Assembly: GCA_965208755.1 (NCBI GenBank)
Contig: OZ242353.1
Location: forward strand, 4,974,714 to 5,038,713
DNA length: 64,000 nt
Direction: 5' to 3'
DNA from: Candidatus Multivorans sp.
GTDB lineage: Bacteria; Acidobacteriota; Thermoanaerobaculia; Multivoradales; Multivoraceae
Shown here: piece by piece, positions 19,154-51,722 of the stretch
How positions within the stretch are numbered: the first letter of the stretch is position 1
Layout of the letters: each line of letters starts with the position of its first letter
Made by a program: the position numbers and the translations under genes
The notes under the pieces: model-generated
What the model was told of the DNA's origin: nothing
The model's database searches: none
Seen by the model: the letters and a program-made list of their open reading frames with translations, nothing else

Positions 19154-19217
19154 GACTGTATTCCGCTTCATGCGCTCGCCGGGCGTGGTGTCGATTCGCC
19201 GCTCCGTTGGACGCCCT

Positions 19218-19733
19218 TCAATCGCGGCTGGCGGAGGCGTTCGCCGATGGCCAGTCGCCCGCCTGGCAGGGGAAGGCCTGGATGTCGGCTTCGCCCAGCA
19301 GGGCTTCCTCGCCGTCGAATCGCTTCGACCGGTCCGTGGGCACATGCTTCACGGCGACTGTGAACGGTTGGTCGGTCGCCGTGCCGATGTAGACCCACCA
19401 GTGGCCGTTGTACCAGCAGCCGTTCAGCACCTTGATCAGAAGCTCCGGGTTCGTCGGGCTGTAGGCGAACATGAGCCCTGCCTCGTCGGTTCCCGGGAGC
19501 AGCACGCCCGTGGTCGGCACATCGCCCAGGTTGGCCCAGACGTTGAACTTTCCGCCCTGCAGGCAGAGTGGAGCGCGGCACTCTCCCGCGGTCACGGTCT
19601 CGCCGGCCAACGCCGGGGCGCGGGGCGCCTTGGCTCGGGCGCCCTCGCCGGCCGGAAGGGAATTCTGGGCCGCCGCGGGAAGCGCGGCGAGAACCAGGGC
19701 CGCGATACGGCTTCCTCGCATGAGTGTGTTCAT
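19218..19733 (-). CDS. Small secreted protein: a stand-alone, diverged copy of the C-terminal domain of the downstream tandem family
   Basis: Signal peptide (MNTLMRGSRIAALVLAALPAAAQ). Its body aligns to the array's C-domain: CLQGGKFNV…GVLLPGTDEAGLMFAYSPTNPELLIKVLNGCWYNGHWWVYIGTATDQPFTVAVKHV…EADIQAFPC versus CLRDSRFAVEVEW…VVHAGTNDSALFSFFDRANWEVLAKVLDGCAVNGSFWVFAASTTDLEFTIRVTD…DTEAFPGAC. Confidence 0.6.
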   Translation of the reverse strand: MNTLMRGSRIAALVLAALPAAAQNSLPAGEGARAKAPRAPALAGETVTAGECRAPLCLQGGKFNVWANLGDVPTTGVLLPGTDEAGLMFAYSPTNPELLIKVLNGCWYNGHWWVYIGTATDQPFTVAVKHVPTDRSKRFDGEEALLGEADIQAFPCQAGDWPSANASASRD

Positions 19734-19892
19734 CCGACTCCTCGCTGCTCTTGAACTGAACCTGGACAGGCCGGCGCCTTGAACTTCCCCCGGCTCCTTT
19801 CCGGGCGAGGCGCGGATACTATCGAGTACGCCATGTTCCCCGCCCCGGAACGGTTTGTTCGTCATCTTCGTGGCACGGTCGGGCCGGTCTCG

Positions 19893-21179
19893 ATGGCGCC
19901 GTTCTTCCTTGCGCTCGTTGCCGTTTCGGCGATGGGGCATGCCGCCGTTTCGGCGGCGGAATGCGAGAGCGCCTTCGCCCCGACGCCGCTGAGCGTGCCG
20001 GTGACATCGGTGCCCATCGTCGTCCCTTCGACGGCGGGAGACTACTTCGTTCTCTACGTGTCGCACGGGGAGCGGACTCTCCCCGTGTCAGTGACGCGGG
20101 GAAGGGAAGGCGCCACGCCGCTTGCGTGGCCGGTGGAGGGACTGCCGCCCGGACGGTACCGCGTGGAGAAGTACCCGATCTCCGAACCGGGGGACGTGGA
20201 CGGCGACTGCATCGATGATCTCACCGATCCCAACCCGGTGAACCCGGCTGGAGAGATCGCCTTCACGGACGGACTGACCTTGCTGTCGAGTTCCGCGCAG
20301 TGGCGGGCGATCGCTTTCGACGCGCTGCGCGACGGCTGCTCGATGTGCGAGGTCCCTGGCTCCGGAACGGACTGGCTGAAGCTCTCGGTGGACCGCCGGA
20401 ATCCGGTCCGGCCCGGCGTCTACTTCATCAACGCTCCGACCCATTGGGGCCACCCCCACTTCGCGTTCGCTTTGGGTCTGCCGCTGGATCTGATCTCTCT
20501 CGAACTCGACCGGGCCACCGGACTCCCCGGCTTCGCCCCCGACTCGACAACCTACTTCTTCTGGTTTTCCAACCCCGCGGACGCGCTGGATCTTGCCGGG
20601 ATGGTGCCGCTGCTTCACAGCGCGATCGGCGCCAGCATGCCGATCATGCGGGCGGAGGCCGCCGAATCGCGGCTTGCCTACTACGTTCCCGACACGGTCT
20701 GGAACAGAAGGTACTTCGAAGCGATCAGTCCCTGGCTTCCGAGCTACGAGGAGGCCGGGATCAGGGTTCTGGTCGATGGGTCCTTCGTCGACGATGCTCC
20801 CGAGGGCGCCTGCGAGAGCGACGAGACGAGGCGCTGCCTGCGGGATTCCCGTTTCGCGGTCGAGGTGGAGTGGACGGGTCCGGGCGGGACCGCCGGCGCC
20901 GCTCGGGTGGTCCACGCGGGCACGAACGACTCGGCGCTGTTCTCGTTCTTCGACCGGGCGAACTGGGAGGTTCTGGCGAAGGTTCTGGACGGTTGTGCGG
21001 TGAACGGGAGCTTCTGGGTGTTCGCGGCTTCGACGACGGACCTGGAGTTCACGATTCGGGTGACGGACACGGCGACCGGGGTTTCCCGCGCGTACTCGAA
21101 CGAGGCGGGCGCCGCCGCTCCCGCCGTCGCCGACACCGAGGCCTTCCCGGGCGCCTGCGGGAACGGCCGGGGCCGATGA
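19893..21179 (+). CDS. Array gene A. Secreted modular protein, shortest form: signal peptide + conserved N-domain + Cys-flanked C-domain; no linker or PKD.
   Basis: Start taken at MAPFFLALVAVSAMGHA; an upstream alternative exists at 19779. N-domain motifs YFVLYV, RYRVEKY, DVDGDCIDDLTDPNPVNP, INAPTHWGHP, LVPLLHSAI. C-domain CLRDSRFAVEVEW…AFPGACGNGRGR. Its stop overlaps the next ATG (ATGA). Confidence 0.7.
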   Translation: MAPFFLALVAVSAMGHAAVSAAECESAFAPTPLSVPVTSVPIVVPSTAGDYFVLYVSHGERTLPVSVTRGREGATPLAWPVEGLPPGRYRVEKYPISEPGDVDGDCIDDLTDPNPVNPAGEIAFTDGLTLLSSSAQWRAIAFDALRDGCSMCEVPGSGTDWLKLSVDRRNPVRPGVYFINAPTHWGHPHFAFALGLPLDLISLELDRATGLPGFAPDSTTYFFWFSNPADALDLAGMVPLLHSAIGASMPIMRAEAAESRLAYYVPDTVWNRRYFEAISPWLPSYEEAGIRVLVDGSFVDDAPEGACESDETRRCLRDSRFAVEVEWTGPGGTAGAARVVHAGTNDSALFSFFDRANWEVLAKVLDGCAVNGSFWVFAASTTDLEFTIRVTDTATGVSRAYSNEAGAAAPAVADTEAFPGACGNGRGR

Positions 21180-23359
21180 GAGGCGAACGGGCGGCGGGGT
21201 TGCGCGCGGGCCGGCTTCTCCCTTGGGCGCTGGCGACGGCGACGGCCGCCTTCGCCGCCGCCGGCGAGGGCCTGCGGGCGTCGGAATGCGAGGGCGACGG
21301 AACGACTCCGCCGACGCCGACCGCCGTCGCCGTGGAGTCCGTGCCCATCACGGTCCCTTCGACGGCGGCGGAGTACTTCGTGCTCTACGTGACCCACGAC
21401 CTGGGCGACGGCGATGTCCGCGAGGTTCCGGTGTCGGTGACCCGGGGGGAGGAGGGCGCGACGGCGCTCGAGTGGAACCTGTCCGGGCTTCCCGCGTCGA
21501 GGTACCGGGTCGAGAAGTACCGGATCGACGATCCGGGAGACGTGGACGGCGACTGCCGCGACGACCTGACGGACCCGAATCCGGTCAGCCCGGCCCGGGA
21601 GCTCGAATTCTCGGACGGCCTGAATCTGCTGTCGTCGTCCGAGCAGTGGGACGAGATCTACTTCGACGCCGTTCGCGACGGTTGCCCGGAGTGCGAGTTC
21701 TTTGGGCCGGGAACGCGGTACCTGAAGCTGCACGTCGCCCGCCCGGCCTCGCGGCCGCCGGCAATCTACGTCATCAACGCGCGGACCCACTGGGCGCACC
21801 CCATTTTCCGCAGTGCCGTGGGACTGCGAAGCGGCCTGTCGCTCGAGTTGGACAGGGAGACCGGGTTGGCCGGGACCGGGCCGGAGGTGGACACCTACTA
21901 CTGGTGGTTCTCGACCGGGGAGGATGCGGTCGAGTCCGCCGGTCTGGTGCCGTGGCTGCACAGCGCGGTCGCCGCCAGCCTTCCGATCATGCCGGCCGAG
22001 GCGTCGGAGTGGCGGCTTGCCTACTACATCCCGGACATCAAGTGGGACGAGCCGTTCGTCGAGGCGCTCCTGCCCCGGTTGGCCGGCTACGAGGGCGCGG
22101 GGGTTCCCGTTCTGCGCGACCGCTCGTTCAGGGCCGACCTGCCGAACATCTCGGTCTTGAGCGATCAGGAGTCCGTGACGGAGGGGCGGGACGCGACGTT
22201 CACGTTGACGGCGGATCCGCCGCCTCGGGAGGCCCTTGATGTCCTGTTGCAGGTTGTGGAGTCCAGCGGCAGCGACTTCCTGCACCCCGGTCGCAACCGG
22301 GGCTGCGTGGACATCCTGGGCCCCTCGGTCAACTCGGGCTACTGCTGGGTCAAGTTCGAGGCCGATGCCGCGTCCGCCGTCCTGACGATATCGATCGCGG
22401 ACGACGAGGTGAACGGTTCGGACGGTGTCGGGATCGTTTCCGTCGCGAAGTCGTCCGGCTACCTGCTTGGCATACCTCGTTCGGCGCGGGTCTCGGTGGT
22501 CGACAACGATGACGCTCCACCTCCTCCTCCGCCGCCGCCACCGCCGGAATCCGATCCACCGCCTCCTCCTCCTCCTCCTCCTACTACTCCTCCGCCTCCT
22601 ACTCCTCCGCCTCCTCCGGAATCCGATCCGCCGCCGCCCGCCGGTCCGCCGCCCGGGCCGCCGGCGCCCAATCCGGCGCCGGAACCCGAGCCTGAGCCCG
22701 AGCCCGAGCCGGCCGGTCCGCTGAAGGCGGACTTCACGGTGGACGCGGACTGCTCCTCGGATCCGTGCCGGCTGCGGACGGGCGTTCGCGTGGTGTTCTC
22801 GGATTCGAGCGGCGGCCGCGTCGTCGGCCGGCGCTGGAGCTTCGGGGACGGGTCGACGTCCCGCGGGCTGTCGCCGGCGCACGAGTACCGTTCGCCCGGC
22901 TTCTACGAGGTGTCGTTGACGGTGAGCGACGGGACGGAGGAATCGGTGGCGGCCCGCGTCTTCCTGGTGGAGGCCGGCGAGCCCGCCGGCGCCTGCGTGG
23001 GCGGCGCGTCCACCCGCTGCCTGCGGGATTCCCGGTTCGCGGTCGAGGTGGAGTGGACGGGTCCGGGCGGGGCCGCCGGCGCCGCTCGGGTGGTCCACGC
23101 CGGCACGAACGATTCGGCTCTGTTCTCGTTCTTCGACCGGGCGAACTGGGAGGTTCTGGCGAAGGTTCTGGACGGTTGTGCGGTGAACGGGAGCTTCTGG
23201 GTGTTCGCGGCTTCGACGACGGACCTGGAGTTCACGATCCGGGTGATCGACACGGTGACCGGGCGTTCTCGCGCGTACTCGAACGAGGCGGGCGCCGCTC
23301 CCGCCGTCGCCGACACCGAGGCCTTCCCGGGCGCCTGCGGGAACGGCCGGGGCCGATGA
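21176..23359 (+). CDS. Array gene B. Secreted modular protein: N-domain + ~125-aa insert (SDQESVTEGRDATFTLTADPPPREAL…VSVVDNDD) + Pro/PE linker + PKD + C-domain.
   Basis: Begins MRGERAAGLRAGRLLPWALATA (signal). Coupled ATGA junction at both ends. The ORF table extends the frame upstream to 20300, but the conserved start is at 21176. Confidence 0.75.
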   Translation: MRGERAAGLRAGRLLPWALATATAAFAAAGEGLRASECEGDGTTPPTPTAVAVESVPITVPSTAAEYFVLYVTHDLGDGDVREVPVSVTRGEEGATALEWNLSGLPASRYRVEKYRIDDPGDVDGDCRDDLTDPNPVSPARELEFSDGLNLLSSSEQWDEIYFDAVRDGCPECEFFGPGTRYLKLHVARPASRPPAIYVINARTHWAHPIFRSAVGLRSGLSLELDRETGLAGTGPEVDTYYWWFSTGEDAVESAGLVPWLHSAVAASLPIMPAEASEWRLAYYIPDIKWDEPFVEALLPRLAGYEGAGVPVLRDRSFRADLPNISVLSDQESVTEGRDATFTLTADPPPREALDVLLQVVESSGSDFLHPGRNRGCVDILGPSVNSGYCWVKFEADAASAVLTISIADDEVNGSDGVGIVSVAKSSGYLLGIPRSARVSVVDNDDAPPPPPPPPPPESDPPPPPPPPPTTPPPPTPPPPPESDPPPPAGPPPGPPAPNPAPEPEPEPEPEPAGPLKADFTVDADCSSDPCRLRTGVRVVFSDSSGGRVVGRRWSFGDGSTSRGLSPAHEYRSPGFYEVSLTVSDGTEESVAARVFLVEAGEPAGACVGGASTRCLRDSRFAVEVEWTGPGGAAGAARVVHAGTNDSALFSFFDRANWEVLAKVLDGCAVNGSFWVFAASTTDLEFTIRVIDTVTGRSRAYSNEAGAAPAVADTEAFPGACGNGRGR
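22516..22716 (+). repeat. Low-complexity coding repeat in gene B: poly-Pro / ESDPPPP / (PE)n linker. Analogous tracts lie near 25275-25466, 27723-27918, 30181-30425, 32355-32500, 34475-34585, 37120-37320, 39300-39545 and 40745-40830.
   Basis: The ccgcc/cctcc and gagccc/gaaccc triplet repeats are read directly in the sequence. Lengths differ between paralogs. Confidence 0.85.
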
Positions 23360-26112
23360 GAGGCGAACGGGCGGCGGGGTTTCGCGCGGGCCGGCTTCTC
23401 CCTTCGGCGCTGGCGGCGGCGACGGCGATGGCCTTCGCCTCCGCCGGCGTGGGCCTGCGGGCGTCGGAGTGCGAGGACGACGAAACGACTCCGCCGACGC
23501 CGACCGCCGTCGCCGTGGAGTCCGTGCCCGTCACGGTCGCTTCGACGGCGGCGGACTACTTCGTGCTCTACGTGAAGAACGACGTGGGCAACGGCGTTGT
23601 ACGCGAGGTTCCGGTTTCGGTGACCCGGGGAGAGGAGGGCGCGACGACGCTCGAGTGGAACCTGTCCGGGCTTCCCGCGTCGAGATACCGGGTGGAGAAG
23701 TACGGGATCGACGATCCGGGAGACGTGGACGGGGACTGCCGGGACGACCTGGCGGACCCGAATCCGGTGAATCCGGCCCGGGAGCTCGAACTCAGCGACG
23801 GCCTGAATCTGCTGTCGACGTCCGAGCAGTGGAACGCGCTGTACTTCGACACCGTTCGTGACGGTTGCCCGGAGTGCGAGTTCTTCGGGCCGGGAACGCG
23901 GTACCTCAAGCTGCACGTGGCCCGCCCGGCCTCGCGGCCGCCGGCAATCTACGTCATCAACGCGCGGACCCATTGGGCGCACTTCGAGTTCCGCGTTGCC
24001 TTGGGGCTCAAGAGGGACCTGTCGCTCGAGTTGGACAGGGAGACCGGGTTGACCGGGACCGGGCCGGAGGTGGACACCTACTACTGGTGGTTCTCTGATG
24101 CCAAGGATGCGGTCGCCTCCGCCGGTCTGGTGCCGTGGCTGCACGGCGCGATCGCCGCCAACCTTCCGATCATGCCGGCCGAGGCGTCGGAGTGGCGGCT
24201 TGCCTACTACATTCCGGACAGGACGTGGAGGAAGCGCTACATCGATCGGATAACGCCCCGGATAGCCGGTTACGAGCAGGCCGGGGTGCCGGTTTTGCGC
24301 GACGAGTCGTGGGTCGTCGACGTTTCCCTCGAGATGGAGACGGCCGTCGTGGACGAAGGCGGTACGGCGTCTCTTCTGGCGCGGTTGGCGAAGCCGCTGT
24401 CTTCCTCGGTCACCGTGCCGCTGATCGTGGTGGGGGCGGGGACGGCGAACGCCGTGCCCGCTAGCGTCAGGATCAGCGCCGGGATGACGGAGGCGTCGAC
24501 GAGCTTCGCGACGGCGGTCGACGGGGACACGGAGGACGAGATCGTGACCATCGGTTTCGGCGACCTTCCCTGGCAGGTCTCGCCCGGCAGCCCCGCCAGC
24601 GTGACCCTGGCGGTCAGGGACCTGACGCCGGCGGCGACGCTGGCGGTGAAGACCGACTCCTTGGAGGAGGGTTCGTCGACCGAAGTCGAGGTGCTTCTGA
24701 CCAGGGCCTGGACGAGTCCGCTCCTGATTCCCCTGACGACGTCCGGCACGGTGGAGAGCGGCGATTTCACGGTGCCGGCGAGCGTGACGATCGCGGCGGG
24801 GCGGAAGTCGGGAACCGCCGCCGTTTCCGCGGCGCGCGATGCGGACGCGGATGACGAGACGCTGACGGTGTCGCTGGGGACGCTGCCGGAGGAGGTCGCG
24901 CGCGCTTCGCCGGCCGCGGTCGACATCGTGATCCGCGACAGGAATACGGAGGTCACCCTGTCGGCGGCGCCTTCGACGGTGGAGGAGGGTGAGAGCGCGA
25001 CCGTCACCGCGAGCCTGAGCCGGGCGCGGTCCACCGCCGTGGCGATCCCGCTGCTCGTGAACGACGTGGACGCCGAGCCGGGCGACTACGCGGCGCCGTC
25101 GTTCATCGAAGTTGCGCCGAACGCCGTGACGGGCGCCGCGGCCCTTCTGACCGTGGATGACGGGGACCTGGACGACGAGACCTTCACCGTGTCGCTGGGC
25201 GCCGACCTGCCCGAGGGCATGGTCGCCGGCACGCCGGACGCCGTACTCGTGACCATCCGGGACGACGATTCGGCGCCTCCTCCCCCTCCGGAATCCGATC
25301 CGCCGCCGCCGCCACCTCCACCTCCGCCCGCCGATCCTCCTCCGCCCGCCGGCCCGGCGCCGCCGGAGTCCGATCCGCCGCCGCCCGCGCCTCCGCCCGC
25401 CGGCCCGCCGCCTGCTCCTCCCGAATCCGATCCGGCGCCCGAGCCGGAACCCGAGCCCGAACCGGCGGGTCCGCTGAAGGCTGACTTCACGGTGGACGCG
25501 GACTGCTCCTCGGCGCCGTGCCGGCTGCGGACGGGCGTTCGCGTGGTGTTCTCGGATTCGAGCGGCGGCCGCGTCGTCGGCCGGCGCTGGAGCTTCGGGG
25601 ACGGGTCGACGTCCCGCGGGCTGTCGCCGGCGCACGAGTACCGTTCGCCCGGCTTCTACGAGGTGTCGTTGACGGTGAGCGACGGGACGGAGGAATCGGT
25701 GGCGACTCGCGTCTTCCTGGTGGAGGCCGGCGAGCCCGCCGGCGCCTGCGTGGGCGGCGCGTCCGTCCGCTGCCTGCGGGATTCCCGGTTCGCGGTCGAG
25801 GTGGAGTGGACGGGTCCGGGCGGGGCCGCCGGCGCCGCTCGGGTGGTCCACGCCGGCACGAACGATTCGGCTCTGTTCTCGTTCTTCGACCGGGCGAACT
25901 GGGAGGTTCTGGCGAAGGTTCTGGACGGTTGTGCGGTGAACGGGAGCTTCTGGGTGTTCGCGGCTTCGACGACGGACCTGGAGTTCACGATCCGGGTGAC
26001 GGACACGGCGACCGGGGTTTCCCGCGCGTACTCGAACGAGGCGGGCGCCGCTCCCGCCGTCGCCGACGCGGAGGCGTTTCCGGGCGCCTGCGGGCGCCGC
26101 CGGGGCCGATGA
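23356..26112 (+). CDS. Array gene C. Long form: N-domain + 4 Calx-beta-like repeats + Pro/PE linker + PKD + C-domain.
   Basis: Conserved MRGERAAGFRAGRLLP start at the ATGA junction. Calx-beta-like segments end in …VTLAVRDL, …VDIVIRD and …VLVTIRDDD. Confidence 0.75.
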   Translation: MRGERAAGFRAGRLLPSALAAATAMAFASAGVGLRASECEDDETTPPTPTAVAVESVPVTVASTAADYFVLYVKNDVGNGVVREVPVSVTRGEEGATTLEWNLSGLPASRYRVEKYGIDDPGDVDGDCRDDLADPNPVNPARELELSDGLNLLSTSEQWNALYFDTVRDGCPECEFFGPGTRYLKLHVARPASRPPAIYVINARTHWAHFEFRVALGLKRDLSLELDRETGLTGTGPEVDTYYWWFSDAKDAVASAGLVPWLHGAIAANLPIMPAEASEWRLAYYIPDRTWRKRYIDRITPRIAGYEQAGVPVLRDESWVVDVSLEMETAVVDEGGTASLLARLAKPLSSSVTVPLIVVGAGTANAVPASVRISAGMTEASTSFATAVDGDTEDEIVTIGFGDLPWQVSPGSPASVTLAVRDLTPAATLAVKTDSLEEGSSTEVEVLLTRAWTSPLLIPLTTSGTVESGDFTVPASVTIAAGRKSGTAAVSAARDADADDETLTVSLGTLPEEVARASPAAVDIVIRDRNTEVTLSAAPSTVEEGESATVTASLSRARSTAVAIPLLVNDVDAEPGDYAAPSFIEVAPNAVTGAAALLTVDDGDLDDETFTVSLGADLPEGMVAGTPDAVLVTIRDDDSAPPPPPESDPPPPPPPPPPADPPPPAGPAPPESDPPPPAPPPAGPPPAPPESDPAPEPEPEPEPAGPLKADFTVDADCSSAPCRLRTGVRVVFSDSSGGRVVGRRWSFGDGSTSRGLSPAHEYRSPGFYEVSLTVSDGTEESVATRVFLVEAGEPAGACVGGASVRCLRDSRFAVEVEWTGPGGAAGAARVVHAGTNDSALFSFFDRANWEVLAKVLDGCAVNGSFWVFAASTTDLEFTIRVTDTATGVSRAYSNEAGAAPAVADAEAFPGACGRRRGR

Positions 26113-28565
26113 GAGGCGAACGGGCGGCCGGGTTGGGCGGGGGCCGGCTTCTCCCTTCGGCGCTGGCGGCGGCGGCGATGGCGGCCGCCACCGCCGGCGT
26201 GGGCCTGCGGGCGTCGGAGTGCGAGGACGACGGAACGACTCCTCCGACTCCGGTGGCCGTCGCCGTGGAGTCCGTGCCCATCACGGTCCCTTCGACGGCG
26301 GCGGAGTACTTCGTGCTCTACGTGACCCACGACCTGGGCGACGGCGATGTCCGCGAGGTTCCGGTTTCGGTGACCCGGGGGGAGGAGGGCGCGACGGCGC
26401 TCGAGTGGAACCTGTCCGGGCTTCCCGCGTCGCGATACCGGGTGGAGAAGTACCGGATCGACGATCCGGGAGACGTGGACGGCGACTGCCGCGACGACCT
26501 GACGGACCCGAATCCGGTCAATCCGGCCCGGGAGATCGAACTCGCGGACGGTCTGAATCTGCTGTCGACGTCCGAGCAGTGGAACGAAATCTACTTCGAC
26601 ACCGTTCGCGATCGTTGCCCGGGTTGCTTCTTCCACGGGCCCGGAACGAGATATCTCAAGTTGCACGGCGACCGCTCGGCCGCGCAGCCCCCGGCAACCT
26701 ACTTCATCAACGCGTCGACCCACTGGGCGCACGCTTTCTTCCGTGTCGCCGTTGGGCTGGAACGCGACTTGTCGCTCGGTCTCGACAGGGAGACCGGGTT
26801 GGGCGACACCGGGTCGGAGTTGGACACCTACTTCTGGTGGTTCACATGGTCCTCGGACGCGGTCGAGTACGCTCATCTGGTGCCCTGGCTGCACAGCGCG
26901 ATCGCCGCCAGCCTTCCGATCATGCCGGCCGATGCGTCCGAGTGGCGGCTTGCCTACTATGTCCCCGACAGGAAGTGGAACAAGAGCGACATCGACCAGA
27001 TCGCGGCCCGGATACCCGGTTACGAGCAGGCGGGGGTGCCGGTTCTGCGCGATGAGGCGTGGGTCGTCGACGTTTCCCTCGAGATGGAGACGGCCATCGT
27101 GGACGAAGGCGGTACGGCGTCCTTCCTGACGCGGCTCGCGAAGCCGCTGTCTTCCTCGGTCACCGTGCCGCTGATCGTGGTGGGGGCGGGGACGGCGAAC
27201 GCCGTGCCCGCTAGCGTCAGGATCAGCGCCGGGATGACGGAGGCGTCGACGAGCTTCGCGACGGCGGTGCACGCGGACGCGGAGGATGAAATCGTGACCA
27301 TCGCTTTCGGCGAGCTTCCCTGGCAGGTCTCGCCCGGCAGCCCCGCCAGCGTGACCTTGACGGTCAGGGACCTGACGCCGATCGGGGAAGCGACTCAGGA
27401 GGTCACCCTGTCGGTGGCGCCTTCGACGGTGGAGGAGGGCGCGGGCGCGACCGTCACCGCGAGCCTGAGCCGGGCGCGATTCACCGCGGTGGCGATTCCG
27501 CTGCTCGTGACCGACGTGGACGCCGAGCCGGGCGACTACGCGGCGCCGTCGTTCATCGAAGTTGCGCCGGACGCCGTGACGGGCGCCGCGGCCCTTCTGA
27601 CCGTGGATGACGGGGACCTGGACGACGAGACCTTCACCGTGTCGCTGGGCGCCGACCTGCCCGAGGGCATGGTCGCCGGCACGCCGGACGCCGTACTCGT
27701 GACCATCCGGGACGACGATTCGGCGCCTCCTCCCCCTCCGGAATCCGATCCGCCGCCGCCGCCACCTCCACCTCCGCCCGCCGATCCTCCTCCGCCCGCC
27801 GGCCCGGCGCCGCCGGAGTCCGATCCGCCGCCGCCCGCGCCTCCGCCCGCCGGCCCGCCGCCTGCTCCTCCCGAATCCGATCCGGCGCCCGAGCCGGAAC
27901 CCGAGCCCGAGCCGGCGGGTCCGCTGAAGGCGGACTTCACGGTGGACGCGGACTGCTCCTCGGCGCCGTGCCGGCTGCGGACGGGCGTTCGCGTGGTGTT
28001 CTCGGATTCGAGCGGCGGCCGCGTCGTCGGCCGGCGCTGGAGCTTCGGGGACGGGTCGACGTCCCGCGGGCTGTCGCCGGCGCACGAGTACCGTTCGCCC
28101 GGCTTCTACGAGGTGTCGTTGACGGTGAGCGACGGGACGGAGGAATCGGTGGCGGCCCGGGTCTTCCTGGTGGAGGCCGGCGAGCCCGCCGGCGCCTGCG
28201 TGGGCGGCGCGTCCACCCGCTGCCTGCGGGATTCCCGGTTCGCGGTCGAGGTGGAGTGGACGGGTCCGGGCGGGGCCGCCGGCGCCGCCCGGGTGGTCCA
28301 CGCCGGCACGAACGATTCGGCTCTGTTCTCGTTCTTCGACCGGGCGAACTGGGAGGTTCTGGCGAAGGTTCTGGACGGTTGTGCGGTGAACGGGAGCTTC
28401 TGGGTGTTCGCGGCTTCGACGACGGACCTGGAGTTCACGATCCGGGTGACGGACACGGCGACCGGGGTTTCCCGCGCGTACTCGAACGAGGCGGGCGCCG
28501 CCGCTCCCGCCGTCACCGACACGGAGGCGTTCCCGGGCGCCTGCGGGCGCCGCCGGGGCCGATGA
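26109..28565 (+). CDS. Array gene D. Long form with Calx-beta-like repeats, Pro/PE linker, PKD and C-domain.
   Basis: Same architecture and same ATGA junctions. The N-domain loop is CPGCFFHGPG, where B and C have CPECEFFGPG. Confidence 0.75.
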   Translation: MRGERAAGLGGGRLLPSALAAAAMAAATAGVGLRASECEDDGTTPPTPVAVAVESVPITVPSTAAEYFVLYVTHDLGDGDVREVPVSVTRGEEGATALEWNLSGLPASRYRVEKYRIDDPGDVDGDCRDDLTDPNPVNPAREIELADGLNLLSTSEQWNEIYFDTVRDRCPGCFFHGPGTRYLKLHGDRSAAQPPATYFINASTHWAHAFFRVAVGLERDLSLGLDRETGLGDTGSELDTYFWWFTWSSDAVEYAHLVPWLHSAIAASLPIMPADASEWRLAYYVPDRKWNKSDIDQIAARIPGYEQAGVPVLRDEAWVVDVSLEMETAIVDEGGTASFLTRLAKPLSSSVTVPLIVVGAGTANAVPASVRISAGMTEASTSFATAVHADAEDEIVTIAFGELPWQVSPGSPASVTLTVRDLTPIGEATQEVTLSVAPSTVEEGAGATVTASLSRARFTAVAIPLLVTDVDAEPGDYAAPSFIEVAPDAVTGAAALLTVDDGDLDDETFTVSLGADLPEGMVAGTPDAVLVTIRDDDSAPPPPPESDPPPPPPPPPPADPPPPAGPAPPESDPPPPAPPPAGPPPAPPESDPAPEPEPEPEPAGPLKADFTVDADCSSAPCRLRTGVRVVFSDSSGGRVVGRRWSFGDGSTSRGLSPAHEYRSPGFYEVSLTVSDGTEESVAARVFLVEAGEPAGACVGGASTRCLRDSRFAVEVEWTGPGGAAGAARVVHAGTNDSALFSFFDRANWEVLAKVLDGCAVNGSFWVFAASTTDLEFTIRVTDTATGVSRAYSNEAGAAAPAVTDTEAFPGACGRRRGR

Positions 28566-31072
28566 GAGACGAACGGGCGGTTGGGTTTCGCGCCGGCGGG
28601 CTTCTTCCTTCGGCGCTGGCGGCGGCGACGGCGATGGCCTTCGCCTCCGCCGGCGTGGGCCTGCGGGCGTCGGAGTGCGAGGACGACGAAACGACTCCGC
28701 CGACGCCGACCGCCGTCGCCGTGGAGTCCGTGCCCATCACGGTCCCTTCGACGGCGGCGGAGTACTTCGTGCTCTACGTGACCCACGACCTGGGCGACGG
28801 CGATGTCCGCGAGGTTCCGGTGTCGGTGACCCGGGGGGAGGAGGGCGCGACGACGCTCGAGTGGAACCTGTCCGGGCTTCCCGCGTCGAGGTACCGGGTC
28901 GAGAAGTACCGGATCGACGATCCGGGAGACGTGGACGGCGACTGCCGCGACGACCTGACGGACCCGAATCCGGTCAACCCGGCCCGGGAGATCGAACTCG
29001 TGAACGGTCTGAATCTGCTGTCGACGTTTGAGCAGTGGGACGAGCTCTACTTCGACACCGTTCGCGATCGTTGCTCGGAGTGCTTCTTTCACGGGCCCGG
29101 AACGAGATATCTCAAGCTGTTCGGCAATCGCTCGGGCTCGCGGCCGCCGGCAATCTACTTCATCAACGCGCCGACCCACTGGGGGCACCCTGCCTTTCGG
29201 ACCAGAATGAAACTGCAGGCCGGCTGGAACCTGGAGCTGGACAGGGAAACCGGGTTGGGCGACACAGGGCCGGAGGTGGACACCTACTACTGGTGGTTCT
29301 CCTTCCCACAGTACGCGGACGAGTACGCCCATCTGGTGCCCTGGCTGCACAGCGCGATCGCCGCCAACCTGCCGATCATGCGGGCGGATGCGTCCGAATG
29401 GCGGCTTGCCTACTACATCCCCGACAAGACGTGGGATTGGTACAACCTCGACCCGATCACGTCCCGGATAGCCGGTTACGAGCAGGCGGGGGTGCCGGTT
29501 CTGCGCGATGAGGCGTGGGTCGTCGACGTTTCCCTCGAGATGGAGACCGCCATCGTGGACGAAGGCGGTACGGCGTCTCTTCTGACGCGGTTGGCGAAGC
29601 CGCTGTCTTCCTCGGTCACCGTGCCGCTGCTTGTGGCGGGGCGGGACACGTCGACCGCGGTGCCCGCGAGCGTCGAGATCGCCGCCGGAAGCACGGAGGC
29701 GTCGACAAGCTTCTCGACGGCGGTCGACGGGGACACGGAGGACGAGATCGTGACCATCGGTTTCGGCGAGCTTCCCTGGCAGGTCTCGCCCGGCAGCGCC
29801 GCCAGCGTGACCTTGACGGTCAGGGACCTGACACCGATCGGGGAAGCGACTCAGGAGGTCACCCTGTCGGTGGCGCCTTCGACGGTGGAGGAGGGTGCGG
29901 GCGCGACCGTTACCGCGAGCCTGAGCCGGGCGCGATCCACCGCGGTGACGATCCCGCTGCTCGTGAACGACGTGGACGCCGAACCGGGCGACTACACGGC
30001 GCCGTCGTTCATCGGAGTAGCGCGGGGCGCCGTGACGGGCGCGGCGGCCCTTCAGGCCGTGGATGACGGCGACCTGGACGACGAGACCCTCACCGTGTCG
30101 CTGGGCGCCGCCCTGCCCGAGGGCATGGTCGCCGGGACGCCGGACGCCGTACTCGTGACCATCCGGGACGACGATTCGGCGCCTCCTCCTCCGGAATCCG
30201 ATCCTCCTCCTCCTCCTCCTCCTCCTCCTCCTCCTCCTCCTCCGCCGCCGCCCACGCCGCCGGAATCCGATCCTCCGCCTCCTCCTCCTCCGCCCACGCC
30301 GCCGCCCTCGGGTCCGCCGCCCGCGCCGCCGGCGCCCGATCCGGCGCCTGAACCCGAGCCTGAGCCCGCGCCCGAGCCCGAGCCGGAACCCGAGCCTGAA
30401 CCCGAGCCCGAGCCGGCGCCGGCCGGTCCGCTGAAGGCGGACTTCACGGTGGACGCGGACTGCTCCTCGGCGCCGTGCCGGCTGCGGACGGGCGTTCGCG
30501 TGGTGTTCTCGGATTCGAGCGGCGGCCGCGTCGTCGGCCGGCGCTGGAGCTTCGGGGACGGGTCGACGTCCCGCGGGCTGTCGCCGGCGCACGAGTACCG
30601 TTCGCCCGGCTTCTACGAGGTGTCGTTGACGGTGAGCGACGGGACGGAGGAATCGGTGGCGGCCCGGGTCTTCCTGGTGGAGGCGGGGGAGCCCGCGGGC
30701 GCCTGCGTGGGCGGCGCGTCCGTCCGCTGTCTGCGGGATTCCCGTTTCGCGGTCGAGGTGGAGTGGACGGGTCCGGGCGGGGCCGCCGGCGCCGCTCGGG
30801 TGGTCCACGCGGGCACGAACGACTCGGCGCTGTTCTCGTTCTTCGACCGGGCGAACTGGGAGGTTCTGGCGAAGGTTCTGGACGGTTGTGCGGTGAACGG
30901 GAGCTTCTGGGTGTTCGCGGCTTCGACGACGGACCTGGAGTTCACGATTCGGGTGACGGACACGGCGACCGGGGTTTCCCGCGCGTACTCGAACGAGGCG
31001 GGCGCCGCCGCTCCCGCCGTCGCCGACACCGAGGCCTTCCCGGGCGCCTGCGGGAACGGCCGGGGCCGATGA
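28562..31072 (+). CDS. Array gene E. Long form carrying the longest Pro/(PEPA)n linker.
   Basis: Starts MRDERAVGFRAGGLLP. The linker (PPPPPPPPPPPPPPPPPTPPESDPPPPPPPPTPPPSGPPPAPPAPDPAPEPEPEPAPEPEPEPEPEPEPEPAPAGP) is followed by the PKD and C-domains. Confidence 0.75.
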   Translation: MRDERAVGFRAGGLLPSALAAATAMAFASAGVGLRASECEDDETTPPTPTAVAVESVPITVPSTAAEYFVLYVTHDLGDGDVREVPVSVTRGEEGATTLEWNLSGLPASRYRVEKYRIDDPGDVDGDCRDDLTDPNPVNPAREIELVNGLNLLSTFEQWDELYFDTVRDRCSECFFHGPGTRYLKLFGNRSGSRPPAIYFINAPTHWGHPAFRTRMKLQAGWNLELDRETGLGDTGPEVDTYYWWFSFPQYADEYAHLVPWLHSAIAANLPIMRADASEWRLAYYIPDKTWDWYNLDPITSRIAGYEQAGVPVLRDEAWVVDVSLEMETAIVDEGGTASLLTRLAKPLSSSVTVPLLVAGRDTSTAVPASVEIAAGSTEASTSFSTAVDGDTEDEIVTIGFGELPWQVSPGSAASVTLTVRDLTPIGEATQEVTLSVAPSTVEEGAGATVTASLSRARSTAVTIPLLVNDVDAEPGDYTAPSFIGVARGAVTGAAALQAVDDGDLDDETLTVSLGAALPEGMVAGTPDAVLVTIRDDDSAPPPPESDPPPPPPPPPPPPPPPPPTPPESDPPPPPPPPTPPPSGPPPAPPAPDPAPEPEPEPAPEPEPEPEPEPEPEPAPAGPLKADFTVDADCSSAPCRLRTGVRVVFSDSSGGRVVGRRWSFGDGSTSRGLSPAHEYRSPGFYEVSLTVSDGTEESVAARVFLVEAGEPAGACVGGASVRCLRDSRFAVEVEWTGPGGAAGAARVVHAGTNDSALFSFFDRANWEVLAKVLDGCAVNGSFWVFAASTTDLEFTIRVTDTATGVSRAYSNEAGAAAPAVADTEAFPGACGNGRGR

Positions 31073-33144
31073 GAGGCGAACGGGCGGCGGGGTTGCGCGC
31101 GGGCCGGCTTCTCCCTTGGGCGCTGGCGACGGCGATTGCCTTGGCCGCCGCCGCCGGCGATCTGTGGGCGTCGGAATGCGAGGACGACGGAACGACTCCG
31201 CCGACGCCGACCGCCGTCGCCGTGGAGTCCGTGCCCATCACGGTCCCTTCGACGGCGGCGGAGTACTTCGTGCTCTACGTGACCCACGACCTGGGCGACG
31301 GCGATGTCCGCGAGGTTCCGGTGTCGGTGACCCGGGGGGAGGAGGGCGCGACGACGCTCGAGTGGAACCTGTCCGGGCTTCCCGCGTCGCGATACCGGGT
31401 GGAGAAGTACGAGGTCGACGATCCGGGAGACGTGGACGGCGACTGCCGCGACGACCTGACGGACCCGAATCCGGTCAATCCGGCCCGGGAGCTCGAATTC
31501 TCGGACGGTCTGAATCTGCTGTCGACGTCCGAGCAGTGGGACGAGATCTACTTCGACACCGTTCGCGATCGTTGCGGGGCGTGCGAGTTCTTCGGGCCGG
31601 GAACGCGATACCTGAAGCTGCACGTTTCCCGCTCGGACTCGAAGCCGCCGCAGATCTACGTCATCAACTCGCGGACACACTGGGGGCATCCCTGGTTCCG
31701 CAACGCCGTGGGGCTGGAAAAGGACCTGCCGATCGAGTTGGACCGGGGCGCCGGGGTGGGCGACACCGGGTCGGAGGTGGAGACCTACTACTGGTGGTTC
31801 TCCGATGCCAAGGATGCGGTCGCCTCCGCCGGTCTGGTGCCCTGGCTGCACAGTGCGATCGCGGCCAGCCTTCCGATCATGCCGGCCGAGTCCGAGGAGT
31901 GGCGGCTCGCCTACTACATTCCGGACACCAAGTGGGATGCGCCGGCTGTCGAGGCGCTCCCGCCCTGGATTGCCGGCTACGAGGGCGCGGGGGTCCCCGT
32001 TCTGCGCGACCGCTCGTTCGCCCCCGACGCGCCCATCGTCTCGGTCTCGAGCGACCAGGAAACCGTGACGGAGGGGCAGGACGCAAGTTTCACGTTCACG
32101 GCGGATCGGTTTGCCCAGGAGGCCTTTGCGGTCGGATTCAGCGTCGTCGAGAGACCGCGGTTCGCCGGCACCCGGAGGGCAGGAGAAGTCAGGTTCGAGG
32201 CTGGCGCCGCGTCCGCCGTCCTGACGTTGCCGACCGAAGACGACGGCGTGGCCGGAAGAGAGCGTGTGGCGATCGTCCACCTCGAGACGGGGGCCGGCTA
32301 TCTGCCCGGTCCGCGGCGCTCGGCGCGGGTCACGGTGGTCGACAACGATGACGCCTCTCCTCCTCCGCCGCCGCCCTCCGATCCTCCTCCTCCTTCGCCT
32401 CCTCCTCCTTCGCCTCCTCCTCCTTCGCCTCCGCCGCCCGCGCCTCCGGCGCCCGATCCGGCGCCGGAACCCGAGCCCGAACCCGAGCCCGAGCCGGCGG
32501 GTCCGCTGAAGGCGGACTTCACGGTGGACGCGGACTGCTCCTCGGCGCCGTGCCGGCTGCGGACGGGCGTTCGCGTGGTGTTCTCGGATTCGAGCGGCGG
32601 CCGCGTCGTCGGCCGGCGCTGGAGCTTCGGGGACGGGTCGACGTCCCGCGGGCTGTCGCCGGCGCACGAGTACCGTTCGCCCGGCTTCTACGAGGTGTCG
32701 TTGACGGTGAGCGACGGGACGGAGGAATCGGTGGCGACTCGCGTCTTCCTGGTGGAGGCCGGCGAGCCCGCCGGCGCCTGCGTGGGCGGCGCGTCCGTCC
32801 GCTGCCTGCGGGATTCCCGGTTCGCGGTCGAGGTGGAGTGGACGGGTCCGGGCGGGGCCGCCGGCGCCGCCCGGGTGGTCCACGCCGGCACGAACGATTC
32901 GGCTCTGTTCTCGTTCTTCGACCGGGCGAACTGGGAGGTTCTGGCGAAGGTTCTGGACGGTTGTGCGGTGAACGGGAGCTTCTGGGTGTTCGCGGCTTCG
33001 ACGACGGACCTGGAGTTCACGATCCGGGTGACGGACACGGCGACCGGGGTTTCCCGCGCGTACTCGAACGAGGCGGGCGCCGCCGCCGCCGTCGCCGACA
33101 CGGAGGCGTTCCCGGGCGTCTGCGGGAACGGCCGGGGCCGATGA
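31069..33144 (+). CDS. Array gene F. Medium form: N-domain + one insert domain + Pro/PE linker + PKD + C-domain.
   Basis: Conserved start and junctions. The insert domain is a diverged variant (SDQETVTEGQDASFTFTADRFAQEAF…). Confidence 0.75.
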   Translation: MRGERAAGLRAGRLLPWALATAIALAAAAGDLWASECEDDGTTPPTPTAVAVESVPITVPSTAAEYFVLYVTHDLGDGDVREVPVSVTRGEEGATTLEWNLSGLPASRYRVEKYEVDDPGDVDGDCRDDLTDPNPVNPARELEFSDGLNLLSTSEQWDEIYFDTVRDRCGACEFFGPGTRYLKLHVSRSDSKPPQIYVINSRTHWGHPWFRNAVGLEKDLPIELDRGAGVGDTGSEVETYYWWFSDAKDAVASAGLVPWLHSAIAASLPIMPAESEEWRLAYYIPDTKWDAPAVEALPPWIAGYEGAGVPVLRDRSFAPDAPIVSVSSDQETVTEGQDASFTFTADRFAQEAFAVGFSVVERPRFAGTRRAGEVRFEAGAASAVLTLPTEDDGVAGRERVAIVHLETGAGYLPGPRRSARVTVVDNDDASPPPPPPSDPPPPSPPPPSPPPPSPPPPAPPAPDPAPEPEPEPEPEPAGPLKADFTVDADCSSAPCRLRTGVRVVFSDSSGGRVVGRRWSFGDGSTSRGLSPAHEYRSPGFYEVSLTVSDGTEESVATRVFLVEAGEPAGACVGGASVRCLRDSRFAVEVEWTGPGGAAGAARVVHAGTNDSALFSFFDRANWEVLAKVLDGCAVNGSFWVFAASTTDLEFTIRVTDTATGVSRAYSNEAGAAAAVADTEAFPGVCGNGRGR

Positions 33145-35231
33145 GAAACGAACGGGCGGCGGGGTTGCGCGCGGGGCGGCCTCTCCCTTGGGCGCTGGCG
33201 GCGGCGATGGCCGCCTTCGCCGGCGGCCCGTGGGCGGTGGAGTCCGACGACGACGAAACGACTCCGCCGACGCCGACCGCCGTCGCCGTGGAGTCCGTGC
33301 CCATCACGGTCCCTTCGACGGCGGCGGAGTACTTCGTGCTCTACGTGACCCACGACCTGGGCGACGGCGATGTCCGCGAGGTTCCGGTGTCGGTGACCCG
33401 GGGGGAGGAGGGCGCGACGACGCTCGAGTGGAACCTGTCCGGGCTTCCCGCGTCGCGATACCGGGTGGAGAAGTACGAGGTCGACGATCCGGGAGACGTG
33501 GACGGCGACTGCCGCGACGACCTGACGGACCCGAATCCGGTCAACCCGGCCCGGGAGCTCGAATTCTCGGACGGCCTGAATCTGCTGTCGACGTCCGAGC
33601 AGTGGGACGAGATCTACTTTGACGCCGTTCGCAGTCGTTGCGGGGCGTGCGAGTTCTTCGGGCCGGGAACGCGGTACCTGAAGCTGCACGTCGCCCGCTC
33701 GGCCTCGCGGCCCCCGGCGGCCTACTTCATCAACGCGCGGACCCACTTGGTGCACTTCTTGTTCCGCCGCGCCGTGGGGCTGGAAAAGGACCTGTCGCTC
33801 GAGCTGGACAGGGAGACCGGGTTGGCCGGGACCGGGTCGGAGGTGGACACCTACTACTGGTGGTTCTCCGATGCCAGGGATGCGGTCGAATCCGCCGGTC
33901 TGGTGCCCTGGCTGCACAGCGCGATCGCGGCCAGCCTTCCGATCATGCCGGCCGATGCGTCGGAGTGGCGGCTCGCCTACTACATCCCGGACACCAGGTG
34001 GCAGGAGCTGGCCGTCGAGGCGCTGCTGCCCCGGTTGGCCGGCTACGAGAGCGCGGGGGTTCCCGTTCTGCGGGACCGTTCGTTCGACGCCGACCTGCCG
34101 AACATCTCGGTCTCGAGCGATCGGGAGTCCGTGACGGAGGGGCGGGAGGCGACTTTCACGTTCACCGCGGATCCGCCGCCTCGGGAGGCCCTTGAAGTCC
34201 TGTTCCAGGTTGTGGAATCCAGCGGCAGCGACTTCCTGCGCCCCGGTCTCAACCAGGTCTGCGACGACTTCCCGGGCACCCTGGGCAACGCGGGCTACTG
34301 CTGGCTCAGGTTCGAGGCCGATGCCGCGTCCGCCGTCCTGACGATACCGACCGTGGACGACGACGTGGACGGATCGGACGGTGTCGGGACCGTCTCCGTC
34401 GCGAGGTCGTCCCGCTACCTGCTCGGCATGCCTCGTTCGGCGCGGGTCTCGGTGGTCGACAACGATGACGCTCCTCTTTCTCCTCTTCCTCCGCCTCCTC
34501 CTCCTCCTCCTTCGCCTCCGCCGCCCGCGCCTCCGGCGCCCGATCCGGCGCCGGAACCCGAGCCCGAACCCGAGCCCGAGCCGGCGGGTCCGCTGAAGGC
34601 GGACTTCACGGTGAAGGCGGACTGCTCCTCGGATCCGTGCCGGCTGCGGACGGGCGTTCGCGTGGTGTTCTCGGATTCGAGCGGCGGCCGCGTTGTCGGC
34701 CGGCGCTGGAACTTCGGGGACGGGTCGACGTCCCGCGGGCTGTCGCCGGCGCACGAGTACCGTTCGCCCGGCTTCTACGAGGTGTCGTTGACGGTGAGCG
34801 ACGGGACGGAGGAATCGGTGGCGGCCCGGGTCTTCCTGGTGGAGGCCGGCGAGCCCGCCGGCGCCTGCGTGGGCGGCGCGTCCACCCGCTGCCTGCAAGA
34901 TTCCCGGTTCGCGGTCGAGGTGGAGTGGACGGGTCCGGGCGGGGCCGCCGGCGCCGCTCGGGTGGTCCACGCCGGCACGGACGATTCGGCGCTGTTCTCG
35001 TTCTTCGACCGGGCGAACTGGGAGGTTCTGGCGAAGGTTCTGGACGGTTGTGCGGTGAACGGGAGCTTCTGGGTGTTCGCGGCGGCGACGACGGACCTGG
35101 AGTTCACGATCCGGGTGACGGACACGGCGACCGGGGTTTCCCGCGCGTACTCGAACGAGGCGGGCGCCGCCGCCGCCGTCGCCGACACCGAGGCCTTCCC
35201 GGGCGCCTGCGGGAACGGCCGGGGCCGATGA
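33141..35231 (+). CDS. Array gene G. Medium form.
   Basis: Starts MRNERAAGLRAGRPLPWALAAAMAAFAGGPWAVESDDDETTPPTPTAVAVESVPITV. Same domain order as B, F and I. Confidence 0.75.
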   Translation: MRNERAAGLRAGRPLPWALAAAMAAFAGGPWAVESDDDETTPPTPTAVAVESVPITVPSTAAEYFVLYVTHDLGDGDVREVPVSVTRGEEGATTLEWNLSGLPASRYRVEKYEVDDPGDVDGDCRDDLTDPNPVNPARELEFSDGLNLLSTSEQWDEIYFDAVRSRCGACEFFGPGTRYLKLHVARSASRPPAAYFINARTHLVHFLFRRAVGLEKDLSLELDRETGLAGTGSEVDTYYWWFSDARDAVESAGLVPWLHSAIAASLPIMPADASEWRLAYYIPDTRWQELAVEALLPRLAGYESAGVPVLRDRSFDADLPNISVSSDRESVTEGREATFTFTADPPPREALEVLFQVVESSGSDFLRPGLNQVCDDFPGTLGNAGYCWLRFEADAASAVLTIPTVDDDVDGSDGVGTVSVARSSRYLLGMPRSARVSVVDNDDAPLSPLPPPPPPPPSPPPPAPPAPDPAPEPEPEPEPEPAGPLKADFTVKADCSSDPCRLRTGVRVVFSDSSGGRVVGRRWNFGDGSTSRGLSPAHEYRSPGFYEVSLTVSDGTEESVAARVFLVEAGEPAGACVGGASTRCLQDSRFAVEVEWTGPGGAAGAARVVHAGTDDSALFSFFDRANWEVLAKVLDGCAVNGSFWVFAAATTDLEFTIRVTDTATGVSRAYSNEAGAAAAVADTEAFPGACGNGRGR

Positions 35232-40209: not shown

Positions 40210-40315
40210 CGGGAGCGCGATGGAGCGCGGGCAGTGTAAGATGCGGCCGGGAGAGAGCCCTCGGGCGGATGGCGCCGTGCAGATCGTTGATGACAGTTCT
40301 TTCGGCCGCCAGGAC

Positions 40316-50193: not shown

Positions 50194-50206
50194 AGGCAAA
50201 CGGCCG

Positions 50207-51685: not shown

Positions 51686-51722
51686 CGTTCTGCTCCTTCG
51701 ACTCCTAGTCGAGGCGGGTCTC

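Follow-up and report, generated by a model that had tools for sequence, protein, structure and literature searches.

The clostridial collagenases ColG and ColH illustrate a well-known plan for an exported protein: a catalytic or adhesive passenger is followed by one or more PKD domains and, at the C-terminus, by a series of one to three binding modules, each a beta-sandwich of some 110-120 amino acids (aa). The C-terminal domain (CTD) recognized by the type IX secretion system (T9SS; Por_Secre_tail, TIGR04183) illustrates a second plan, in which exported proteins that are otherwise unrelated finish, at the very C-terminus, in a beta domain of about 100 aa. Considered here is a domain reminiscent of both, found in a stretch of 64,000 nucleotides (nt) from contig OZ242353.1 of Candidatus Multivorans sp., a sponge-associated member of the Acidobacteriota. 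The domain ends every one of 11 tandem genes on the + strand, hereafter the array, and it also occurs by itself, as the body of a 171-aa protein encoded by a small gene on the - strand, next to the start of the array. I argue that the small gene is real and its domain a module, and propose that the module's most likely role is targeting or binding. The whole 64-kb stretch is called the window, and all coordinates are positions within it unless a related locus is named (L001-L006 and L071); P numbers are database proteins.

A real gene for a stand-alone domain

The small gene and its product are made up as follows:

19218..19733, - strand: coding sequence (CDS) of the 171-aa stand-alone protein (from a scan of open reading frames (ORFs) and start codons; stop codon 19218-19220, ATG 19733)
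19738..19743, - strand: Shine-Dalgarno sequence GAGGAG, 4 nt ahead of ATG 19733
19668..19733, - strand: putative signal peptide, residues 1-22, MNTLMRGSRIAALVLAALPAAA before QN (read by eye from the sequence)
19581..19667, - strand: low-complexity linker of Ala, Pro and Gly, residues 23-51 (predicted local distance difference test score, pLDDT, below 50; elevated ratio of nonsynonymous to synonymous substitution rates, dN/dS)
19266..19580, - strand: the domain proper, residues 52-156 (~105 aa), all-beta (from BLASTP, alignments A1 and A2, an AlphaFold2 (AF2) model and dN/dS)

A first-pass annotation had placed a small secreted protein at this position, and the ORF is indeed there: it runs from ATG 19733 to a stop codon at 19218-19220, and a protein on record at NCBI/ENA, P0001, matches its 171 aa letter for letter. 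ATG 19733 is the only one of the in-frame starts with a Shine-Dalgarno sequence before it. The ORF could be read as longer, to a maximum of 282 aa, but such versions were rejected, as they run into the start of the first array gene and have no counterpart in orthologues; the starts they might use (ATG 19865, ATG 19940 and GTG 20066) lie in overlap with gene 1, provide no signal peptide and lack conservation in the orthologues. The GC content at the three codon positions (0.67, 0.55 and 0.85) is typical of a genuine CDS in DNA of about 70% GC, as the window is, which argues that the small gene is a real coding sequence.

Orthologues of the small gene lie on four other contigs. Their products are 84% (P0002), 76% (P0003, from a sponge metagenome), 58% (P0004) and about 50% identical to the small protein, the last from a metagenome-assembled genome (MAG) of Ca. 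Multivorans thiocomprendens. The close orthologues P0002 and P0003 lie on short contigs, P0002 coming from a separate run. When the window is compared with L002 and L004 by the Nei-Gojobori method, dN/dS is 0.09-0.13 over the 105 codons of the domain and 0.36-0.52 over the signal peptide and linker. Purifying selection thus acts on the domain itself, beyond mere upkeep of an ORF. At L002 (2487-3098) the small ORF is 32 codons longer (203 aa) and overlaps a convergent gene for an FAA hydrolase by ~100 bp, as though its stop codon had been lost or shifted.

The N-terminus of the small protein reads as a type I (Sec) signal peptide. By eye, MNTLMRGSRIAALVLAALPAAA|QN offers a basic n-region, a hydrophobic core and an AxA cleavage site (A-A-A), with no lipobox Cys, and these features are retained in P0002 and P0003. 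The protein would thus be exported by Sec beyond the inner membrane, cleaved after the AAA site and released with no tether, leaving a flexible linker followed by one self-folding beta domain of ~105 residues. The domain has Cys at positions 52, 57, 106 and 156, the first and last of which mark its ends, and the four would brace it, probably as two disulfides. The tail after Cys156 is short and unconserved. AF2 models the domain confidently with no partner present (pLDDT about 90-95, block means 81-95), as strands at 56-58, 63-69, 75-78, 85-89 and 96-105, a helix at 106-109, and further strands at 111-118, 124-130, 135-140 and 149-155.

Comparison with the array requires these additional features:

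19833..21179, + strand: array gene 1, with a signal peptide, an orphan N-domain of ~300 aa and a C-domain directly after it (448-aa product on record; AF2)
20793..21176, + strand: the C-domain of gene 1, homologue of the small protein (BLASTP; matching secondary structure)
21176..44144, + strand: array genes 2-11, each with a terminal C-domain (ORF and motif scans)

The 11 array genes run in tandem from 19833 (or 19893, see below) to 44144, and all end in the same domain of ~120 aa. The annotation had called the small protein a diverged copy of that domain, at roughly 30% identity, and this is borne out: BLASTP aligns it to gene 1 with 34% identity over 110 aa (E 2e-13) and to gene 11 with 36% identity over 78 aa (E 4e-10). 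Its score against the family profile, which includes the small protein itself and three of its orthologues, is 184 bits (E 2e-49 database-wide). The motifs named at the outset, the flanking Cys pair and the N-E-L-KVL-GC core, are real. Invariant columns of alignment A1 comprise C-L, F-V-W, G-T, N-E-L-KVL-GC-N, W-V, T-D and the last Cys, and all four Cys are invariant in A2, an alignment of 64 sequences. A six-frame scan of the window for the motif finds 11 copies on the + strand, in the array, and one on the - strand, in the small gene.

The expectation that the two domains would look alike when modelled also fared well. The AF2 model of gene 1 (pLDDT 88) gives its C-domain strands at 313-316, 321-328, 334-340, 347-351 and 360-367, a helix at 368-371, and strands at 373-380, 385-392, 398-402 and 412-419. 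Both models thus have nine strands and one short helix in identical order, at positions that correspond in the BLAST alignment; the comparison is one of the order and positions of the elements. Because the secondary structures match one to one and the sequences are homologous, the two probably share a fold. The C-domains of the array are more than 90% identical among themselves, against 34% for the small protein compared with them, and on that ground an origin of the small protein as a recent fragment of the array was rejected. It is at most ~40% identical to any other member of the family and 47-84% identical to members of its own group. By sequence, then, the small protein represents an old branch of the domain family, conserved in its own right.

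The domain as a module, and what it may do

How widely is the domain used? A profile built from nine sequences, searched against representatives of clusters formed at 50% identity, finds 9,873 clusters at E <= 1e-3, of which 8,557 also pass E <= 1e-10, with one to four copies per protein. The domain is the C-terminal end of 129 of the 148 top representatives, usually stopping 1-3 residues from the end of the protein. In 10-12 of the 148, a pair of domains lies right after the signal peptide and is followed by FG-GAP or by cadherin/Ig-like domains, and in 9 the domain is internal only. Tandem pairs are common. The domain's partners include PKD, Calx-beta, fn3, He_PIG, Peptidase_M10, P_proprotein, PPDK_N, FG-GAP and cadherin-like domains. 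At least 533 copies were confirmed in species-representative genomes, and the best 80 of these come from Thermoanaerobaculia, Ca. Multivorans, 'Holophagales' or Acidobacteriota MAGs, with one exception titled 'uncultured bacterium'; 23 of the 80 fall in a single genome of 3.7 Mb. The best-matching group of MAGs includes assemblies from sponge metagenomes. The small protein used alone as query found no relative in the species-representative genomes, so the genome of the window is not one of them; the organism was placed by the M20 peptidase of the window, 94% identical to that of Ca. Multivorans thiocomprendens.

True stand-alone copies are the rare exception. In 74 related loci, 102 stop-to-stop ORFs bear the domain, and about 2 of them consist of a signal peptide and one domain, one being the orthologue at L006 and the other lying at L071. 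Many of the 'short' members of the family in databases are truncated gene calls that begin within a PKD domain.

Neither Pfam nor NCBIfam has a match to the C-domain in the small protein or in those of the array, and Pfam searched at E <= 10 with 64 members of the family returns PKD matches only. The small protein has no match to PKD (PF00801 or PF18911), which array members do match upstream of the C-domain. A profile search of PDB gives matches confined to the PKD columns and none for the C-domain. With Foldseek, the best E values are 0.3 and 0.16 for the model of the small protein against PDB and BFVD and 0.07 for the model of gene 1 against PDB, with TM-scores, normalized to the query, of at most 0.27. 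The top matches to the small protein (SPRY, eqolisin and avidin-like) are not significant (E >= 0.3, TM <= 0.23). No description of the domain was found in the literature on Ca. Multivorans, on sponge symbionts of the Thermoanaerobaculia and on PKD proteins.

The occurrence of the domain in tandem and at N-termini, its absence from 38 of the 43 homologues of the array N-domain found elsewhere, the conservation of a gene that carries it alone, and a confident model obtained with no partner together support the view that it is a self-sufficient, self-folding module shuffled among exported proteins, and not only a cleaved sorting tag. Internal copies and the variety of passengers agree with this, and the first-pass annotation, which had argued for an autonomous module in preference to a tag, was right on this point.

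I propose that the small gene is a functional gene for an exported protein, and that the domain, in the array proteins and elsewhere, acts as a targeting or binding module, its most likely role judging by architecture. A passenger, followed by PKD and by one or two terminal modules of ~115 aa, sometimes with an M10 protease, recalls the clostridial collagenases and suggests by analogy a module for targeting a substrate or a surface. The domain would hold its passenger (adhesin-like repeats, metalloproteases and others) on a ligand in the matrix, on a glycan or on a cell surface. The free small protein would be a version lacking a passenger, and it may bind the same kind of ligand or the array proteins themselves. 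Taken as a whole, I consider this proposal somewhat more probable than its alternatives combined.

Several observations weigh against it. Comparisons of sequence (Pfam, NCBIfam, PDB) and of fold (Foldseek) give no likeness to a lectin, a carbohydrate-binding module (CBM) or a collagen-binding domain. The strong bias towards the last 1-3 residues of the protein is equally expected of a secretion signal. In the small protein D-S-R after C-L, F-x-F-F, the W of N-W-E, and D-T are missing, all of them conserved to at least 90% across the family, and the loss of residues so nearly invariant implies that it may not share the ligand of the array domains. Finally, the small protein changes quickly between lineages. 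In Ca. Multivorans thiocomprendens (L006, 775-1263) it is about 50% identical where the product of the adjacent gene, an M20 peptidase, is 94% identical, and in another lineage 58% where the M20 peptidase is 77%; the local gene order at L006 differs from that of the window. Either the small protein is changing its function or a paralogue has taken the place of the gene, both as mere possibilities; episodic change and replacement would both fit the fast divergence. Within the closest trio (window, L002 and L004) the domain is tightly constrained despite it.

An alternative view is that the small protein is half of a divided pair. The proximal and distal copies of a tandem pair would together form the working unit, and the small protein, as a free distal copy, would dock on array C-domains in trans, where it could complete the pair, or bridge or cap the proteins of the array. 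I regard this as unlikely. In its favor, tandem pairs occur in 50 of the 96 domain-bearing ORFs of related genomes, and the two copies can be told apart: hidden Markov models (HMMs) of copy 1 and copy 2, trained on two thirds of 140 tandem pairs, recognize 46 of 47 held-out proximal copies and 33 of 47 held-out distal copies. In loci of Thermoanaerobaculia the copy 1 HMM favors the proximal copy in 50 of 50 cases and the copy 2 HMM the distal in 49 of 50, although the training set may overlap the genomes tested. The C-domains of the array are of the copy 1 type (+9 to +19 bits), while the small protein, its orthologues and the stand-alone protein of L071 are of the copy 2 type (-4 to -11 bits), but these gaps are small and the small protein is far from both subtypes (67-75 bits against a typical 150-180). 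Distal copies make up 33 of the 60 nearest BLAST neighbors of the small protein, against a background of about 31%, and it has two hallmarks of distal copies, Q-x-G after C-L and N-x-H-x-W. Its gene remains next to genes of the array family. On the other hand, proteins with a single copy have copy 1 in 34 of 45 cases and copy 2 in 11 of 45, so neither subtype needs the other in cis. If trans docking did occur, a single fast-evolving small gene would set the surface behavior of an entire variable array in a sponge symbiont, and the conserved palindrome described below would couple expression of the two.

The C-domain might instead be a C-terminal signal for secretion or sorting by a route of export across the outer membrane, in the manner of the T9SS CTD, with the small protein a substrate without cargo, a decoy or a relic. 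The terminal position of the domain in most top representatives, mostly within a few residues of the end, and the great diversity of its exported passengers, M10 proteases included, are what this idea predicts. NCBIfam includes a model of the T9SS tail. NCBIfam searched at E <= 0.1 nonetheless has no match to the small protein or to the array C-domains, Foldseek finds nothing in PDB at E <= 0.001 and no secretion-signal domain among the top matches listed, and the scanned ORFs of the window include no secretion-system genes. A signal would also be hard to reconcile with tandem pairs to quadruplets, with pairs at the N-terminus after signal peptides, with internal copies, or with strong purifying selection on a stand-alone gene, and I consider it improbable. 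Greater doubt attaches to the free protein as a soluble competitor or regulator, which would tune the attachment or release of array proteins by taking up the ligand to which their C-domains bind, or a receptor on the envelope. It has what is probably the same fold and no passenger, and the divergent genes, with a shared spacer and a conserved palindrome, would permit coordinated or reciprocal expression. However, divergence at many near-invariant positions gives no assurance of the same ligand, and the divergent arrangement is lost in more distant relatives. There is also the deflationary idea that the small ORF is a decaying fragment or a miscalled ORF left by rearrangements of the array. 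Spurious long ORFs are frequent on both strands at ~70% GC, and the truncated calls among short members of the family are a warning. But the small gene has its own putative signal peptide and a Shine-Dalgarno sequence, a GC content at third positions appropriate to a gene, a domain with dN/dS of ~0.1, orthologues on other contigs, and a distance from the array copies far greater than theirs from each other. Selection and orthology effectively refute decay, and the idea as a whole is scarcely credible.

The spacer between the divergent genes

The small gene and array gene 1 are transcribed away from each other, and two features lie between them:

19734..19832, no strand: divergent spacer from the small gene to array gene 1 (99 bp if gene 1 begins at ATG 19833; 159 bp if at ATG 19893)
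19814..19824, no strand: palindrome GGATAcTATCg, the sole conserved element of the spacer (also at L002 2367-2377 and L004 1188-1198)

The spacer had been drawn as 19734-19892, but this is probably too long. The product of gene 1 on record (P0270) has 448 aa, placing the start at ATG 19833, and this ATG, with the TT that follows it, is conserved in L004 and L002, where the internal Met (19893) is absent. ATG 19893, unconserved and lacking a basic n-region behind it, was rejected as the start. Because of the length of P0270 and the conservation of ATG 19833 in the orthologous loci, the spacer most likely has 99 bp. The orthologous spacer is 23 bp in L004/L005 and 125 bp in L002/L003 (254 bp by that contig's own gene call). 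Relative to L004, the spacer of the window has 76 extra bp, which carry the Shine-Dalgarno sequence of the small gene.

The palindrome is part of a conserved block, CGGATA(C/G)TATC, which precedes the ATG of gene 1 by 6-9 nt in the window, in L002/L003 and in L004/L005. As GGATA-N-TATC(C/G) it occurs once in the 64-kb window and is absent from 75 other loci. It carries hexamers resembling a -10 element on each strand, TACTAT (+) and TAGTAT (-), each agreeing with TATAAT at four of six positions, with no -35 element. In L004, TAGTAT precedes the A of the small gene's ATG by 6 nt, so an mRNA begun there would be leaderless. A scan of 19000-20100 for the sigma-70 consensus, which may not be that of Thermoanaerobaculia, found no promoter-like site. 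One match to a terminator, at 19834 (+) within the start region of gene 1, is at chance frequency. At the other end of the small gene, the convergent gap at 19150-19225 (-) shows no terminator-like stability when folded as RNA (z = -0.19). Rfam, run on 18900-20300, returned only an S4-Bacteroidia leader at 19206-19230 (+) with E 0.4; its 19.1 bits compare with a gathering threshold of 34.7, it coincides in part with the 3' end of the small gene, and it is taken as chance.

Symmetric bidirectional promoters, in which -10 elements on opposite strands overlap, have been described in bacteria (bioRxiv 10.1101/2020.01.31.928960). The palindrome, with its hexamers on opposite strands, is like them, but the hexamers match at four of six positions only, with no -35, and the sigma-70 scan was negative. 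The sequence would fit an operator for a dimeric regulator equally well. The claim of a bidirectional control region therefore stands in part: the genes are divergent in the window and in the two closest loci, and they share a conserved palindrome of 11 bp; a sigma-70 consensus is wanting, the spacer shrinks to 23 bp in one locus, and divergence is not kept in distant relatives. Judged by its sequence, shared control of the small gene and the array through the spacer is plausible, for this lineage only.

The array, its surroundings and known systems

The array itself has features that deserve mention. Stop and start codons overlap by 4 nt (ATGA) at each of the eight junctions examined, those of genes 1-6 and 7-9. 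The N-terminal ~330 aa of the array proteins are nearly identical, and genes 2-10 have in common a nearly identical C-terminal stretch of Pro-rich linker, PKD and C-domain; in gene 1 the C-domain follows directly after the N-domain. Of the array members, genes 2, 3 and 10 were scanned with Pfam for PKD domains, and all have them just upstream of the C-domain; gene 1 has no match in Pfam or NCBIfam. The middles of the genes differ in length, some with Calx-beta/LapA-like repeats. From its sequence, the array (19833-41470) looks like one long operon shaped by gene conversion and cassette variation.

The N-domain of the array (19893-20790, + strand, and its paralogues), ~300 aa in length, has no match in Pfam, in NCBIfam or, by Foldseek, in PDB, and its model has a pLDDT of 88. 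It contains an acidic stretch, D-x-D-x-D-G-D-C-x-D-D (DPGDVDGDCIDDLTDPNPVNPA), that resembles a calcium-binding loop. Gene 11 (41457-44144, + strand) has a signal-peptide-like start, the N-domain, a PPDK_N ATP-grasp domain (Pfam E 3e-26, with weak matches to PEP synthase and rifampicin phosphotransferase) and the C-domain. A domain that uses ATP is odd in a protein that is apparently exported, and yet the pairing of N-domain and PPDK_N recurs, in an 869-aa gene of L001 and in P0290, P0291, P0315 and P0316.

In five loci, and in three gene orders, the small gene lies within a few genes of members of the N-domain/C-domain family. A set of genes recurs in the window, L001 and L006, comprising those for a carboxylesterase, an M20 peptidase, a PQQ dehydrogenase and an FAA hydrolase, the small gene, and N-domain/C-domain genes that include one bearing PPDK_N; L006 ends at the edge of its contig, so that only part of the set is visible there. 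The small gene of L001 and L006 runs in the same direction as an M20 peptidase gene or follows downstream of an array-type gene. In the window, the array is followed directly, at 44188-47220 and 47227-50307 (- strand), by two adjacent paralogous ORFs of ~1,010-1,026 aa with Big_7 and a C-terminal VWA domain. Further on (50207-54119, - strand), a DUF1501 gene adjoins a PSCyt1/PSCyt2/PSD1 gene (DUF1549/DUF1553, 'Planctomycete cytochrome C'), a pair typical of Planctomycetota but present here in the genome of an acidobacterium.

As a single finding this is modest: a real, correctly read small gene, for whose product architecture suggests a candidate function. It bears, however, on a large family (~9,900 clusters) that has neither a curated model nor a solved relative nor a Foldseek match. 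That the domain is self-sufficient has its simplest proof in a natural copy that stands free and is kept by purifying selection, and the small protein, at ~120 residues, is the smallest natural and the easiest construct with which to solve the structure and screen for ligands. Should host matrix or a partner domain prove to be the ligand, it would provide a handle on how abundant, uncultured Acidobacteriota of sponges attach their variable exported proteins.

How, then, does the domain compare with what is known? The nearest relatives are the C-terminal domains of 'PKD domain-containing proteins' from MAGs of Holophagales, Thermoanaerobaculia and Ca. Multivorans, which share with the small protein the profile, the four Cys, the motif and the order of strands; the small protein differs in standing alone with no PKD before it, in lacking several near-invariant residues, and in forming a lineage of its own. 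Like the T9SS CTD, the domain has a beta structure, a length of ~100 aa and a place at the very end of many exported proteins that are unrelated to one another, but it has no match in NCBIfam or in structure, its host belongs to the Acidobacteriota rather than the Bacteroidota, and where the CTD is a strictly C-terminal single copy, the domain is also found in tandem, at N-termini, internally and alone. The resemblance to the collagen-binding domains (CBDs) of ColG and ColH (PPC, PF04151) is an analogy of architecture only. The domain has no match in Pfam at E <= 10 (64 members), in the sequences of PDB or, by Foldseek, to a CBD, and it differs in its four conserved Cys; the PKD part of the profile does match the PKD structures of ColH and ColG, and some members of the family likewise place an M10 metalloprotease in front. 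The small protein calls for no new system: it is a stand-alone member of a familiar kind, the modular accessory domains of exported proteins.

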